Positions 16,298 to 29,427 of a DNA stretch of 45,337 bases are shown here, in pieces (within the stretch, counting starts at the first letter, position 1; every line of letters begins with the position of its first letter). A model generated the notes under the pieces. It saw only the letters and a program-made list of their open reading frames with translations, was not told the DNA's origin and searched no databases. The stretch lies in the IMG/VR virus record IMGVR_UViG_2718217885_000006; one strand, written 5' to 3'. Both the position numbers and the translations under genes were made by a program. Origin of the DNA: a virus (lineage: Duplodnaviria > Heunggongvirae > Uroviricota > Caudoviricetes).

Positions 16298-17869
16298 ATG
16301 GACACCTCACTTGCTCATGAGAATGCCCGCCTGCGGGCACTGTTGCAGACACAACAGGACACCATCCGCCAGATGGCTGAATACAACCGCCTGCTCTCAC
16401 AGCGGGTGGCGGCTTATGCTTCCGAAATCAACCGGCTGAAGGCGCTGGTTGCGAAACTGCAGCGTATGCAGTTCGGTAAAAGCTCAGAAAAACTTCGTGC
16501 AAAAACCGAACGGCAGATACAGGAAGCACAGGAGCGAATCAGCGCACTTCAGGAAGAAATGGCAGAAACGCTGGGTGAGCAATATGACCCGGCACTGCCA
16601 TCCCCCCTGCGCCAGTCTTCTGCCCGTAAACCGTTACCGACCTCACTTCCCCGTGAAACCCGGGTTATCCGGCCGGAAGAGGAATGCTGCCCGGCCTGTG
16701 GTGGCGAACTCAGTTCTCTGGGATGTGATGTGTCAGAGCAACTGGAGCTTATCAGCAGCGCCTTTAAGGTTATCGAAGCACAACGTCCGAAACTGGCCTG
16801 TTGCCGGTGCGACCATATCGTGCAGGCACCAGTACCTTCAAAACCCATTGCACGCAGTTATGCCGGAGCGGGGCTTCTGGCCCATGTTGTCACCGGGAAA
16901 TATGCAGACCATCTGCCGTTATACCGCCAGTCAGAAATATACCGTCGCCAGGGCGTGGAGCTGAGCCGCGCCACGCTGGGGCGCTGGACAGGTGCCGTTG
17001 CTGAACTGCTGGAGCCGCTGTATGACGTCCTGCGCCAGTATGTGCTGATGCCCGGTAAAGTCCATGCCGATGATATCCCCGTCCCGGTCCAGGAGCCGGG
17101 CAGTGGTAAAACAAGGACTGCCCGGCTGTGGGTCTACGTCCGTGATGACCGTAACGCCGGTTCACAGATGCCTCCGGCGGTCTGGTTCGCGTACAGCCCG
17201 GACCGGAAAGGCGTCCATCCACAGAATCATCTGGCCGGTTACAGCGGTGTGCTTCAGGCCGATGCTTACGGTGGTTACCGGGTGTTATACGAATCCGGCA
17301 GAATAACGGAAGCCGCGTGTATGGCTCATGCCCGGAGAAAAATCCACGATGTGCATGCAAGAGTGCCCACCGACATCACCACGGAAGCCCTGCAGCGTAT
17401 CGGTGAACTGTATGCCATAGAGGCAGAAGTCCGGGGATGTACAGCAGAACAGCGTCTGGCGGCAAGAAAAGCCAGAGCTGCGCCACTGATGCAGTCACTG
17501 TATGACTGGATACAGACTCAGATGAAAACACTGTCGCGTCACTCGGATACGGCAAAAGCGTTCGCATACCTGCTGAAACAGTGGGATGGCCTGAACGTGT
17601 ACTGCAGTAATGGCCAGGTGGAAATCGACAACAACATCGCAGAGAACGCCTTACGGGGAGTGGCCGTAGGCCGGAAAAACTGGCTCTTCGCGGGTTCCGA
17701 CAGCGGTGGCGAACATGCGGCGGTGTTGTACTCGCTGATCGGCACATGCCGTCTGAACAATGTGGAACCAGAAAAATGGCTGCGTTACGTCATTGAGCAT
17801 ATCCAGGACTGGCCGGCAAACCGGGTACGCGATCTGTTGCCCTGGAAAGTTGATCTGACCTCTCAGTAA
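16298..17869 (+). CDS. IS66-family transposase TnpC
   Basis: 523 aa; N-terminal leucine-zipper-like region, CxxC...CxxC zinc-ribbon (CPACGG ... CCRCDH), DDE-type catalytic region. Confidence 0.85.
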
Positions 17870-17899
17870 ATATCAATACGGTTCTGGCGAGCCGCTTAC

Positions 17900-17907: not shown

Positions 17908-18005
17908 AGCCTTTCAGGGGTGAGCTTACGGGATGGTCAGTGTGACTTTCTCTGTGGGCTGGTCACCCCAGGGCGCAGGCTCACCCACTAAAAGGAAAAG
18001 TCACG

Positions 18006-18431
18006 ATGTTTGGTATTTTCAAAAAGAAAACACGCAAGGCCATTACCGAAGTGAAGAAGATGGAGAATCGCGATGCAGTGGAGGCGACCGTCTGGGGTGC
18101 GTATTCCATTGCATATGCTGACGGCACCTGTGACGCGAAAGAAATCGCGGTACTGGAGAAAACCATTGCAGCACTTCCTGCCTTTGCGCCGTTCTCGGGT
18201 GAGATTGCACAAATGAGTGCAAATATCCGCGCCCGTTATGAAGCATCGCCGCGTTCTGCCAATGCCGAAGCCCTCCGCCAGCTGGCTGATATTGCAGGTA
18301 CTGATGACGCAGTTAATGTGCTGTGCCTGTGTCTGGATATCGCTGACCAGGATGGTATTGGTCCGGATGAAGAAGCACAGCTCAAGAAAATTGCTCAGGC
18401 GCTGCAGCTACCACTGGAGCAGTACCTGTGA
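18006..18431 (+). CDS. TerB-like (tellurite-resistance TerB domain) protein
   Basis: 141 aa; helical protein with YADGTCDAKEIAVLEK and DIADQDGIGPDEEAQLKKIAQAL segments resembling the TerB repeat; call by recollection. Confidence 0.5.
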   Translation: MFGIFKKKTRKAITEVKKMENRDAVEATVWGAYSIAYADGTCDAKEIAVLEKTIAALPAFAPFSGEIAQMSANIRARYEASPRSANAEALRQLADIAGTDDAVNVLCLCLDIADQDGIGPDEEAQLKKIAQALQLPLEQYL

Positions 18432-18592
18432 AAAGTGCGCGCCTTGTGCTGGCTGCCATCCTGCTGTTTCTGGTAGTGGCAGTGGATTTCACCGGACGGC
18501 TGATGTCGGTACTGGCAGATGGTGTGCTGGTGGCGGGGATGGTGATAATGGTGTTGCCTTTGCTGAAGAGTGTAAAAAATACACAGACGTGA
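18428..18592 (+). CDS. small membrane protein (54 aa)
   Basis: GTG start overlapping the TerB-like stop (GTGA); two hydrophobic segments (LVLAAILLFLVVAV, LVAGMVIMVLPLL). Confidence 0.4.
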   Translation: MKSARLVLAAILLFLVVAVDFTGRLMSVLADGVLVAGMVIMVLPLLKSVKNTQT

Positions 18593-18786
18593 AATGTTAA
18601 ATCCATCACAATTAAGTTGATTGGGCATTGCTGGTTGACGGAGCTTTTGTTAGAAAAAATTTGCATGGTGGATCCCCCCGGGTGGTGGGCATATGAGTGA
18701 TGTATGTTTCTGTTCTGCTCCTTTATTATGCTGATTCGGGTACTGATACTGAATTCATCGGGAGGCACCCGGCACCATGCAAGCAT

Positions 18787-18809
18787 GCCCCTCTCCTGAG
18801 GGGCTTTTT
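18787..18809 (+). terminator. intrinsic terminator-like hairpin
   Basis: Stem GCCCCTC/GAGGGGC, 4-nt loop, followed by TTTTT. Confidence 0.45.
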
Positions 18810-18853
18810 ATATAAACAGGTTCTACAGATTCTATCAGACATGCGTAAACTTA

Positions 18854-19189
18854 TTATGGCCTGTGTCGTTTTAGTCCGTAGGGGCATATTTGCAGAATGC
18901 AACGGTTATTAAAGCATTCATTAAATACGTTATCTGAATTTGCAGGGCATTCCTGGCTGTTTTTGATTAAATCCCAGAATCTTTTATTGAATGGTACAAC
19001 GTTGTAAATGGTTACAGGTAGCACTTTGTTATTGAGTACGATACCTGTGTGAGTCAGCGTAAATATACTTTCAGGAGGTAAGAAAACATCCGATTGATAC
19101 CAGATTATTAATTTTATTTTACTCCATATGGCTGAAAAAGATATTCCACATGATGGCTGGATAACTGTATCAATCACAATCCACTTCAT
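18854..19189 (-). CDS. hypothetical protein (111 aa) in AT-rich island
   Basis: ATG with AAGGA SD 6-7 nt upstream; opposite strand to surrounding late genes; long AT-rich upstream region 19190-19435. Confidence 0.4.
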
Positions 19190-19450
19190 TTAGTTTCCTT
19201 ATTTATGCCTTGCTGGTGATGTTCTGAAAAGTATAAATGATAATTTTGAATGTAAACCATAGAGCAGAACTGTTTTTCTGATTTTGTTTATTGTTTATTT
19301 AAAATGCAGGGTGGTTTATATCTCGTCTTGTAGTTTATCCATGCATATCTGCTTTATGATGAGGTTTTATTTAAGGTATGGTTTTGTGTTTTTTTCTGTA
19401 TTGCATGTCAGGTATTTTAAAGAATTATTTTTTAGATGGTGGAAAGAACC

Positions 19451-19786
19451 ATGGCATTTAAACACTATGATGTTGTCAGGGCGGCGTCGCCGTCAGATCT
19501 TGCGGAAAAGCTGACACACAAACTGAAAGAGGGCTGGCAGCCATACGGCGGACCGGTTGCCATTACGCCGTACACACTGATGCGGGCGGTGGCTATTGAA
19601 GGAGAGCCACAGGTCGGCCCTTCATCTGAGCCGGACTGGTTCTACGTGGTTGTGCTTACCGGACAGTCCAACAGCATGGCCTACGGTGAAGGGCTTCCGT
19701 TACCGGATTCTTACGATGCTCCGGATCCGCGCATTAAACAGCTGGCGCGCCGCAGCACGGTAACTGGCATTTTTAGCAGAGCCTGA
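19451..19786 (+). pseudogene. truncated nanS-p-like gene (DUF1737 plus start of sialate O-acetylesterase domain)
   Basis: N-terminus MAFKHYDVVRAASPSDLAEKLTHKLKEGWQPYGGP matches the DUF1737 module found upstream of lambdoid lysis genes; then the beginning of an SGNH/SASA esterase (VVVLTGQSNSMAYGEG) and stops after about 110 codons. Confidence 0.6.
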
Positions 19787-19893
19787 ATGCCATAATCACG
19801 GCTCCCGGAGTTGGCCGTCAGTGGGTGACACGGGCGGCTTTTTGTTTTTCTTTACTTTCATTTTCTGTCGGCGGGGACGGAGACATACATCAT

Positions 19894-20100
19894 ATGGAAA
19901 AAATTACAACAGGTGTGTCATACACCACGTCAGCGGTGGGGACGGGATACTGGTTACTGCAGCTGCTGGACAGGGTTTCCCCGTCTCAGTGGGCGGCAAT
20001 AGGCGTGCTGGGGAGTCTGCTGTTTGGTCTGCTGACGTACCTGACGAACCTGTATTTCAAAATTAAAGAAGACCGGCGTAAGGCGGCGCGGGGAGAGTAG
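19894..20100 (+). CDS. holin (lambdoid S-type)
   Basis: 68 aa; [23 protein letters not shown] ... hydrophobic helix ... C-terminal charged tail ([13 protein letters not shown]); GGAG SD. Confidence 0.8.
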
Positions 20101-20103
20101 ACG

Positions 20104-20745
20104 ATGAACCATGAAGAAATGAATCAGCGCATAAGTTGCCTGGAAAATGAAATCACTGAACTGAATAAAAAACTGTCGGTGCTGATGGTTTCTGAAGATG
20201 AAAAAAAACGCCGCGATGAGCAGGAAGCAGCGTTTTACGATGATTGCATCAAAATTGCTCGCAGGACCTTTGCGAAGATTTTGCAGGAAAAGTTTTTACC
20301 GACCGCATTGTCAGAAAAGCACTCCATTACAGTTAAAAGTGCCGGAGAGGAAGGCAATAAACGTTATTTTATTGCGTCTGCACCGGATAAAGACCAGGAA
20401 TGGGGGGGGAATCGGCCATCTTTTATTGTGACAAGCGATGACTGGAATATCACGATCCGTGAAGATGGAAAAGTAACACCAGCATCGCACCAGCACAGTG
20501 AGGCGCTCATTGAATTTGCCATTGATTACCTGAAGAACAATAAAAAGCAGGGACTAATGAAGCGCATTGGTCGTTGCATGGGATATCTGCAGGTAGCTGC
20601 TGAGATTGAAGCGCTGGCCAGTGGTGCGGACAAGGATGCAGTTGTGCGGGAGGCTCTTCTTCGTGATTTTGATAATCCACCCTTTAAAAAAGTGCCGGCT
20701 TACTGGTTTCATCCAGGACTGACTTATCTTAAAGGACGTATATAA
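20104..20745 (+). CDS. hypothetical protein (213 aa) inserted between holin and endolysin
   Basis: ATG 4 nt after holin stop with GGAGAG SD; N-terminal coiled-coil (NQRISCLENEITELNKKLSVL); no recognisable domain. Confidence 0.55.
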   Translation: MNHEEMNQRISCLENEITELNKKLSVLMVSEDEKKRRDEQEAAFYDDCIKIARRTFAKILQEKFLPTALSEKHSITVKSAGEEGNKRYFIASAPDKDQEWGGNRPSFIVTSDDWNITIREDGKVTPASHQHSEALIEFAIDYLKNNKKQGLMKRIGRCMGYLQVAAEIEALASGADKDAVVREALLRDFDNPPFKKVPAYWFHPGLTYLKGRI

Positions 20746-20754
20746 GCTGGCTCG

Positions 20755-21069
20755 TTATCTGTTGCCGGATAATCGACGGAAGATGCGTTCTTTTTGTGAT
20801 TTGGCGTAATGATGATCCCACTCACATTCAAGGTAGTTTAATTCTTCGTTTAACCAGTCATTTATATTGTCTTTCAGACGTAGAAGCATGGCTGGTGTTA
20901 ATATTCTGGACATAATGTCGAGAGTTGGTGGTGTGAGGTGTCCATACGGTTCAGCCTGAATGGATTTTACTGCTTCGTGGTTTTGCTGAATGAGTTTAAG
21001 GAATGCTGATTTAAATTGTTCATTCATGGCCTGCATGCAGGCGGTATATTTATGTTCATCGTTATACAT
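20755..21069 (-). CDS. hypothetical protein (about 104 aa), convergent with preceding gene
   Basis: Start chosen at ATG (MYNDEHKY...) with GAGGA SD 8-9 nt upstream; the track ORF extends to a GTG at 21123. Confidence 0.45.
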   Translation of the reverse strand: MYNDEHKYTACMQAMNEQFKSAFLKLIQQNHEAVKSIQAEPYGHLTPPTLDIMSRILTPAMLLRLKDNINDWLNEELNYLECEWDHHYAKSQKERIFRRLSGNR

Positions 21070-21197
21070 TGCTAAATCCTCGACGGGAATTGTCAGATAT
21101 ATTTCAGCCATCAGGTAAAACACCAGTGCCCACCACTGGCGGGCTGAAGACTTAACATATCCAGGGATTCGGAACCGATAAATCCTGATAAATATCC

Positions 21198-21731
21198 ATG
21201 AACACCAAAATCAAATACGGTCTGTCGGCTGCCGTTCTGGCGCTGATTGCCGCAGGTGCGCCTGCGCCTGAAATCCTCGACCAGTTTCTGGATGAAAAGG
21301 AAGGTAACCACACAACGGCATACCGCGATGGTTCCGGCATCTGGACCATCTGTCGGGGTGCCACGATGGTGGATGGAAAACCCGTTTTTCCCGGTATGAA
21401 ACTGTCGAAGGAAAAATGCGACCAGGTCAACGCCATTGAGCGTGATAAGGCGCTGGCATGGGTGGAGCGCAATATTAAAGTACCACTGACCGAACCACAA
21501 AAAGCGGGTATCGCGTCATTTTGTCCCTATAACATTGGCCCCGGTAAGTGTTTTCCATCGACGTTTTATAAGCGGCTGAATGCTGGTGATCGTAAAGGTG
21601 CATGCGAGGCGATTCGCTGGTGGATAAAAGATGGTGGGCGCGATTGCCGCATACGTTCAAATAACTGCTATGGACAGGTTATTCGTCGTGACCAGGAAAG
21701 CGCATTAGCCTGTTGGGGGATAGATCAGTGA
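21198..21731 (+). CDS. endolysin, GH24 lysozyme with N-terminal SAR-like segment
   Basis: 177 aa; weakly hydrophobic Gly/Ala-rich N-terminus ([19 protein letters not shown]) followed by T4-lysozyme-like catalytic region ([23 protein letters not shown]). Confidence 0.85.
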
Positions 21732-28221: not shown

Positions 28222-29427
28222 ATGGCGGTTGATATTAAAGATGTCGAACAGGTCGCGCAGGAGCTGCAGCAGAAGTTTGACGACTTCAAAGCAAAGAACG
28301 ACAAGCGCGTGGATGCGATTGAGCAGGAAAAAGGCAAACTTGCCGGGCAGGTGGAAACCCTGAACGGGAAACTCAGCGAGCTGGAAAACCTCAAAAGCGA
28401 TCTTGAAAAAGAGCTGCTTGAGCTGAAACGTCCGGCAGGTGGTGCGCAAAATAAACTGGCCACCGAGCATAAAGAAGCGTTTGTGGGCTTCCTGCGTAAA
28501 GGCCGTGAAGATGGTCTGCGCGATCTGGAGCGCAAGGCATTACAGGTGGGCTCCGATGAAGACGGCGGCTATGCCGTGCCGGAAGCACTGGATCGCAACA
28601 TTCTCACCCTGCTGAAAGATGAAGTGGTGATGCGCCAGGAAGCCACGGTGATCAGCGTTGGTGGTTCCGACTACAAAAAACTGGTGAATCTGGGCGGCAC
28701 GGCTTCCGGATGGGTTGGCGAGACTGACGCGCGCTCCCAGACTGCCACCTCAAAACTGGGCCTGATTGAACCTTTCATGGGGGAAATCTACGGTAACCCG
28801 CAGGCCACCCAGAAAATGCTGGATGATGCCTTTTTCAACGTGGAAGCATGGATCAACAGCGAGCTGGCAACCGAATTTGCCGAACAGGAAGAAATTGCCT
28901 TTACCACCGGCGATGGTACCAAGAAGCCGAAAGGGTTCCTGGCGTATGAGTCCACGGATGAAACAGACAAGGTCCGGGCGTTCGGCAAACTTCAGCATAT
29001 TGTATCCGGCGAAGCGACGGCGGTGACCGCAGATGCCATTATCAAACTGATTTACACGCTGCGTAAGGCACACCGCACTGGCGCGAAGTTCATGATGAAC
29101 AACAACAGTCTGTTTGCCATCCGTCTGCTGAAAGACAGTGAGGGTAACTATCTGTGGCGTCCGGGGCTGGAGCTGGGGCAGCCGTCCTCTCTGGCGGGTT
29201 ACGCTATCGCTGAAAACGAACAGATGCCGGATATTGCCGCTGATGCGAAAGCCATTGCATTTGGTAACTTCAAACGGAGTTACACCATCGTTGACCGTAT
29301 CGGTACCCGCATTCTGCGTGACCCGTACACCAATAAACCGTTTGTCGGTTTTTATACCACCAAGCGCACCGGCGGCATGCTGGTCGATTCGCAGGCCATC
29401 AAACTGCTGAAGATTGCAGCGGCGTAA
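28222..29427 (+). CDS. major capsid protein (HK97 fold)
   Basis: 401 aa; N-terminal coiled-coil scaffold-like delta region followed by capsid domain; AGGAGA SD; gene order protease then capsid. Confidence 0.9.
   Translation: MAVDIKDVEQVAQELQQKFDDFKAKNDKRVDAIEQEKGKLAGQVETLNGKLSELENLKSDLEKELLELKRPAGGAQNKLATEHKEAFVGFLRKGREDGLRDLERKALQVGSDEDGGYAVPEALDRNILTLLKDEVVMRQEATVISVGGSDYKKLVNLGGTASGWVGETDARSQTATSKLGLIEPFMGEIYGNPQATQKMLDDAFFNVEAWINSELATEFAEQEEIAFTTGDGTKKPKGFLAYESTDETDKVRAFGKLQHIVSGEATAVTADAIIKLIYTLRKAHRTGAKFMMNNNSLFAIRLLKDSEGNYLWRPGLELGQPSSLAGYAIAENEQMPDIAADAKAIAFGNFKRSYTIVDRIGTRILRDPYTNKPFVGFYTTKRTGGMLVDSQAIKLLKIAAA

Follow-up and report, generated by a model that had tools for sequence, protein, structure and literature searches.

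The open reading frame lying directly upstream of the holin gene in a lambdoid prophage is very probably a pseudogene, derived from a full-length prophage nanS-p gene by a single, microhomology-mediated deletion of about 1,855 bp. The DNA analyzed, hereafter the window, is the IMG/VR record IMGVR_UViG_2718217885_000006, 45,337 nucleotides long, and corresponds to a whole lambdoid prophage. The coordinates of the relevant features are reported in Table 1.

Table 1. Features of the window. Positions are numbered from the first letter of the window; domains and motifs of the remnant are located by residue numbers of its predicted product.
Feature	Position	Strand	Remarks
Integrase	1..1314	-	
Q-like antiterminator	13576..14124		
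tnpA (IS66 family)	15281..15931		
tnpB (IS66 family)	15931..16278		
tnpC (IS66 family)	16298..17869		
Module	18000-21250		TerB-family gene, DUF3927, IraM-like gene, nanS-p remnant, holin S, two unknown ORFs
TerB-family protein	18006..18431		moron cluster upstream of the remnant
DUF3927 small membrane protein	18428..18592		moron cluster upstream of the remnant
IraM-like anti-adapter	18854..19189	-	moron cluster upstream of the remnant
Truncated nanS-p ORF	19451..19786	+	111 codons; ATG 19451, TGA 19784-19786
Complete DUF1737 domain (PF08410)	19457..19588	+	residues 3-46 of the 111-aa product; Pfam
SASA/NanS esterase N-terminal fragment	19628..19765	+	residues 60-105; match to 3PT5
GQSN motif (GGA CAG TCC AAC)	19661..19672	+	residues 71-74
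Deletion junction	19764..19765	+	2-bp microhomology 'CT', common to both parental sequences
Six out-of-context codons (GIFSRA) and TGA stop	19766..19786	+	non-coding spacer in intact loci
Hairpin and T-run of the nanS-p-to-S spacer	19814..19849	+	kept; fold and phage 434 homologue
Holin S, class II	19894..20100	+	intact, 68 aa; Pfam Phage_holin_2_1, E=3.5e-33
213-aa ORF	20104..20745	+	phrog_1085, unknown function
122-aa ORF	20755..21123	-	phrog_1853, unknown function, convergent
Lysozyme R	21198..21731		hydrophobic N-terminal stretch
HK97-like major capsid protein	28222..29427		

A first-pass annotation, made from the letters of the sequence, had described here an ORF with a DUF1737-type N-terminus and the beginning of an esterase domain with its GQSN motif, closed by a stop after about 110 codons and separated from the holin by about 100 bp; the whole had been read as the deletion scar of an esterase of about 600 residues. 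Each of these statements was borne out, by matches well outside what chance would produce. The frame contains 111 codons, and 107 bp separate its stop from the holin ATG. DUF1737 is the sole Pfam domain found in it (E=2.8e-15; 56.3 bits, with a cut-off of 24), and residues 60-101 of the product, GQSN included, align to residues 17-58 of NanS/YjhS (3PT5) with E=1.3e-14. We take GQSN to contain the block-I serine that acts as the nucleophile in NanS. The esterase part left in the remnant amounts to 46 of about 320 residues, or about 14% of the catalytic domain. The Pfam SASA domain was not detected in it, although it was detected in intact relatives, and DUF6645, the C-terminal lectin-like domain, is absent from the remnant as well as from the entire window. 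A second in-frame ATG is located upstream, at 19436; a product starting from there would be 116 aa long.

Full-length NanS-p proteins, such as those of E. coli E110019 (WP_165899068.1), phage 434 (CPT_434_71), 933W (L0105) and phi24B (gp84/vb_24B_21), are encoded, like the remnant, between the Q region and the holin S gene, and have in common with it the first 105 residues, composed of DUF1737, a linker and the SASA start with GQSN. They continue with residues 106-616, while the remnant does not, about 86% of the catalytic domain being gone. In the intact locus of E110019 (L004), the CDS, located at 6001..7851, has 616 codons and is annotated as 'SASA family carbohydrate esterase'. Pfam domains in the intact relative are DUF1737 (residues 3-49), SASA (66-262) and DUF6645 (467-577); residues 60-379 align to NanS 3PT5 with E=2.6e-120, and residues 421-613 align to the solved NanS-p C-terminal domain 6YP6.

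The similarity to these proteins is high and ends sharply. Residues 1-105 of the remnant are 97% identical to the E110019 esterase of 616 aa (tblastn), and its 5' arm is 98.7% identical to E110019 at the nucleotide level over 314 bp. By BLASTP, the same 105 residues align without gaps to residues 1-105 of a 616-aa protein of YYZ-2008 (83% identity, E=9e-63), which is labelled just 'conserved hypothetical protein' and is taken to be NanS-p; the following GIFSRA has no counterpart in it. Nucleotide identity to phage 434 is 92.5% along the 5' arm, with 95% amino acid identity over the first 61 residues. The arrangement around nanS-p and holin S is the same in the window, E110019, phage 434 and YYZ-2008.

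Two of the traits of the NanS-p family are thus found in the remnant: it has the DUF1737 N-terminus, and it occupies the family slot in the lambdoid late region, 3' of Q and directly 5' of holin S. A complete catalytic domain, carrying both the GQSN serine and the C-terminal histidine, is missing. H359 of the E110019 protein, aligned to chain residue 312 of 3PT5, falls within the deleted part; it is presumably the equivalent of the catalytic His301 of NanS, whose catalytic dyad is reportedly formed by Ser19 (of GQSN) and His301. The chromosomal NanS (YjhS, 3PT5) is a complete esterase, about 320 residues long and without DUF1737; the remnant matches only its first 46 residues or so, GQSN among them.

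In order to map the deletion, the window was compared with the intact loci by pairwise BLAST. Its left arm, 19450-19765, corresponds to positions 6000-6315 of the E110019 locus, and its right arm, 19761-20108, to positions 8166-8514. The same two-arm pattern is observed with phage 434 (L005, 4008-4314 and 6165-6504) and YYZ-2008 (L002, 1837-2150 and 4001-4350), so that both flanks are collinear with intact loci in all three references and about 1,854-1,855 bp are missing from the window. With respect to E110019, the missing segment is 6316-8170, that is 1,855 bp, and comprises nanS-p codons 106-616, the stop and 319 bp of downstream spacer. Alignment to full-length nanS-p genes, which the first-pass annotation had indicated as the way to locate the breakpoint, places it at the 'CT' shared by the two parental sequences. 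The left parent reads ...CGCAGCACGGTAACT / CCGGGTGG..., the right parent ...CCGGAATGTTATCT / GGCATTTTT..., and the window ...CGCAGCACGGTAACT / GGCATTTTT..., the slash marking the junction. The 7-mers around it, GGTAACT and GTTATCT, are identical at 5 of 7 positions. Neither tblastn nor blastn found the deleted segment elsewhere in the window, as a translocated or inverted copy or otherwise, and no immediate progenitor with both arms at least 99.9% identical was found. The locus thus shows the features of a deletion pseudogene: flanks collinear with intact loci, loss of the middle segment and a premature, out-of-context stop.

These data suggest the following course of events. A nanS-p gene of 616 codons, encoding DUF1737, the SASA esterase and the C-terminal lectin-like DUF6645, would have stood at the usual moron position, with the Q antiterminator region on one side and holin S on the other. 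A single illegitimate deletion, mediated by the microhomology at the 'CT', would have removed about 1,855 bp. With the loss of codons 106-616, of the stop and of the 319-bp spacer, the frame would run for six codons into formerly non-coding DNA, up to a TGA. The product would come from the late transcript, and its tail would hold the GQSN serine motif without the rest of the catalytic fold. We infer both the role of the microhomology and the continued expression of the remnant.

The region downstream of the junction is well preserved. The ribosome-binding region of holin S and the gene itself, which is annotated as 'class II holin family protein', are kept beside the deletion. The homologue of the spacer hairpin in the phage 434 record is an annotated terminator (L005, 6218..6254). 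The hairpin was not flagged by a consensus promoter/terminator scan, and the fold of the 95-nt stretch containing it has a z-score of only -1.45; it is accordingly described as terminator-like only. Since the lysis cassette and the spacer hairpin are untouched, no effect on the late programme of the phage is expected.

The distribution of the deletion was analyzed in several collections. Among 5,426 complete E. coli genomes, six carry the 901-bp segment 19200-20100 at 99.9-100% identity (08-00022, 09-00049, 06-00048, MFDS1022581, OkiPb01715 and N96). They were obtained from different sources and countries, and the left arm occurs once in each of them. A degenerate junction pattern retrieved three IMG/VR contigs, all with the same allele, and had no match in GTDB species-representative genomes. 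Since the junction recurs in six complete genomes and three IMG/VR contigs, it represents a real allele rather than a fault of assembly. A protein identical to the 111-aa product is found on 395 contigs within a collection of 15 billion proteins. The remnant is already annotated as a pseudogene in RefSeq: on the identical DNA of 08-00022 and MFDS1022581, PGAP reports a pseudogene, 'DUF1737 domain-containing protein; incomplete; missing C-terminus', which is 315 nt long and ends exactly at the junction mapped here.

The allele is part of a module of about 3.2 kb, which three different prophage backbones share with 99.8% identity or more, namely the window, the Rac-like prophage of 08-00022 and a yecE-integrated, lambda-head prophage of MFDS1022581. 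At about 21250, within the lysozyme gene, the density of mismatches rises abruptly, which marks a recombination boundary. Because the module is found in three backbones, modular recombination must have taken the deletion allele along with it; that the allele is tolerated agrees with the nature of nanS-p as an accessory 'moron' gene.

Other features of the prophage were recorded along with the remnant. The large ORFs downstream of the major capsid gene are read as a siphovirus-type tail. The window contains no tRNA genes, unlike the E110019 and 640R1 loci. An IS66-family element (15196-17899), flanked by an 8-bp target duplication (AACCACAG) and with ends GTAAGCG...CGCTTAC, is inserted between an HTH gene (14212..15108) and the TerB-family gene. 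E. coli 08-00022 has no insertion at this site, and MFDS1022581 has the same one as the window. Given its position, with the Q antiterminator on one side and the lysis genes on the other, the element could be polar on late transcription. The IraM-like gene followed by the nanS-p remnant is an arrangement common to the window and to the 640R1-type prophage. Between holin S and lysozyme R, an insert of 1.1 kb carries two ORFs, of 213 and 122 aa, neither with a Pfam match above cut-off; it is larger than what is found there in four references (640R1, YYZ-2008, E110019 and phage 434), where a single small ORF or direct abutment is observed, and could be moron or defence cargo. To judge from its sequence, the N-terminus of lysozyme R looks like a SAR signal-anchor, which would fit a pinholin-type class II holin upstream.

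The predicted product was modelled by using AlphaFold2, with an input alignment of 31 sequences. The model contains a strand (residues 4-11), a helix (14-26) and two further strands (30-39 and 42-50), with pLDDT values of 74-84, while residues 56-111 mostly have values below 50. Foldseek found no match for it in the PDB at E of 0.001 or lower, and the PDB copy searched holds no solved DUF1737 structure. The product, if made, would then consist of a folded DUF1737 of about 55 residues and of an unstructured tail of about the same length. We infer that sialate O-acetylesterase activity has been lost, because the region of the catalytic histidine and the C-terminal lectin-like domain are both gone.

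With respect to the nearest intact allele, the remnant shows four nucleotide changes, three non-synonymous (Q45R, A70T and G75S, the last two on either side of GQSN) and one synonymous (D16D), too few to test selection. Residue conservation was evaluated on the best 120 matches of a word-indexed protein search, mostly 'partial' fragments from contig ends with no full-length protein among them; the search was used just for this and for spotting further decay forms. Of 120 homologues, 115 have Q at position 45 and none has R; at position 70, 96 of 97 have A and none has T. Substitutions at sites conserved in at least 95% of the homologues, such as Q45R and A70T, are compatible with relaxed constraint.

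Other explanations of the short form were evaluated. Many E. coli strains carry nanS-p in several copies, in up to 12 places per genome, and draft assemblies often break within it, so that contigs frequently end in 'partial' proteins; a collapsed repeat or another assembly or sequencing artefact might produce such a junction. This reading was rejected and is extremely improbable: six complete genomes, sequenced independently of one another, have the identical junction, as do the three IMG/VR contigs, and the left arm is single in each of the six genomes, so that a collapse with another copy could not have taken place there. The two arms could also come from two different phages, joined by illegitimate recombination rather than by an internal deletion. 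Lambdoid prophages of this kind are highly mosaic, as seen from the module shared by three backbones and from the jump in divergence at its end, and no progenitor with both arms near-identical was recovered. The order and orientation of the arms are, however, those of every intact locus examined, which makes an intramolecular deletion most parsimonious; an origin from two phages is considered very unlikely, and it would lead to the same functional outcome, a truncated gene.

The first-pass annotation had also considered that the short form might be a conserved stand-alone DUF1737 protein. Along this line, the truncated gene would have been kept as a functional protein, either decorating the phage's own capsid or competing for sites on the capsids of co-resident phages. 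In phi24B, the DUF1737 of gp84, a NanS-p protein, is bound as a hexamer on the central hexons of a T=9 capsid; it is apparently cut from the esterase after residue 54-57 and stays on the capsid alone, and 2,528 of the roughly 3,000 DUF1737 proteins in InterPro are single-domain (10.64898/2026.04.10.717836). The DUF1737 of the remnant is intact and confidently folded in the model, the frame has stayed open and retains its native start and ribosome-binding region, and the spread of the allele over 395 contigs and three prophage backbones is what a functional short protein would also predict. Furthermore, DUF1737 has been kept in both the window and the 640R1/ST131-type deletion, which are independent. 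Against this, no diverged short orthologues sharing the C-terminus of the remnant were found, every carrier having the same allele at 100% identity. Genuine single-domain proteins of the DUF1737 type should consist of the domain alone, in an architecture conserved among diverged homologues, and the remnant shows neither trait: 46 esterase residues and six residues read from intergenic DNA are attached to its domain, and it drags a useless, unstructured tail of about 55 residues with an esterase fragment. In addition, Q45R falls four residues past the tyrosine that corresponds to Tyr42 of gp84, the residue anchoring gp84 to the capsid, and the window encodes an HK97-like capsid and a siphovirus-type tail, whereas binding was demonstrated on a T=9 podovirus capsid. 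A functional stand-alone protein is thus very unlikely. In a broader form of the same idea, recurrent deletions in nanS-p would be a way to shed the esterase and keep DUF1737 as a capsid-decorating or site-competing protein, and the 111-aa product of the window would be made late and bind capsids; this is very unlikely as well. Random deletions towards the 3' end would keep the 5' end anyway, and the searches were seeded with DUF1737 and therefore biased towards finding remnants that retain it. A deletion pseudogene remains the preferred reading.

Decay of nanS-p appears to be frequent, the remnant of the window being one of several independent forms. In the prophage type of vB_EcoS-640R1 (L001, 3234..3595), residues 1-74 of NanS-p are joined to residues 572-616, and W63 is changed to a stop. 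This remnant is not annotated as a pseudogene, but as two genes, a 67-aa 'DUF1737 domain-containing protein' and a 53-aa 'hypothetical protein'. The arrangement is also found in many other complete E. coli genomes; the matches include strain 131 and others that presumably belong to ST131. The 640R1-type locus and the window have in common the IraM-like gene upstream, the promoter-proximal region, the retained DUF1737 and the same class II holin just downstream, whereas the lesions differ: residue 74 is joined to residue 572 in the former, while the deletion of the window extends from codon 106 through the 3' spacer. The two are independent events.

Further decay forms among database proteins include frameshifts just past GQSN and an in-frame fusion of DUF1737 to DUF6645 (P0016). 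P0075, a protein of 75 aa found on 8 contigs, complete genomes among them, comes from another E. coli prophage allele, in which DUF1737 (residues 1-58) continues in frame into roughly the last 17 residues of the holin; the deletion would here extend from nanS-p into S, and lysis should be abolished. The 5' DUF1737 arm was located in 6,801 places in 2,047 complete genomes, and a 785-bp segment of the catalytic domain in 5,354 places in 1,410 complete genomes; as a rough indication, the counts being confounded by megablast sensitivity, many nanS-p 5' ends may be without a catalytic domain. Among PHROGs families, the remnant matches those of the 67-aa form (phrog_2036), of the form of about 113 aa (phrog_9498) and of the full-length protein (phrog_143).

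Beyond the first-pass annotation, the analysis establishes the exact breakpoints, the additional loss of 319 bp of downstream spacer and the place of the remnant among several decay forms. Taken by itself the locus matters little, being an ordinary pseudogene with many counterparts; what it contributes is a further case of the decay of the multi-copy, accessory nanS-p, mapped to its exact breakpoints and to a 2-bp microhomology. The prophage no longer contributes a NanS-p esterase, and therefore no gain in the use of 9-O-acetylated sialic acid from mucin. The wider point is that several independent remnants keep DUF1737, which is a capsid-binding domain according to a 2026 preprint (10.64898/2026.04.10.717836).
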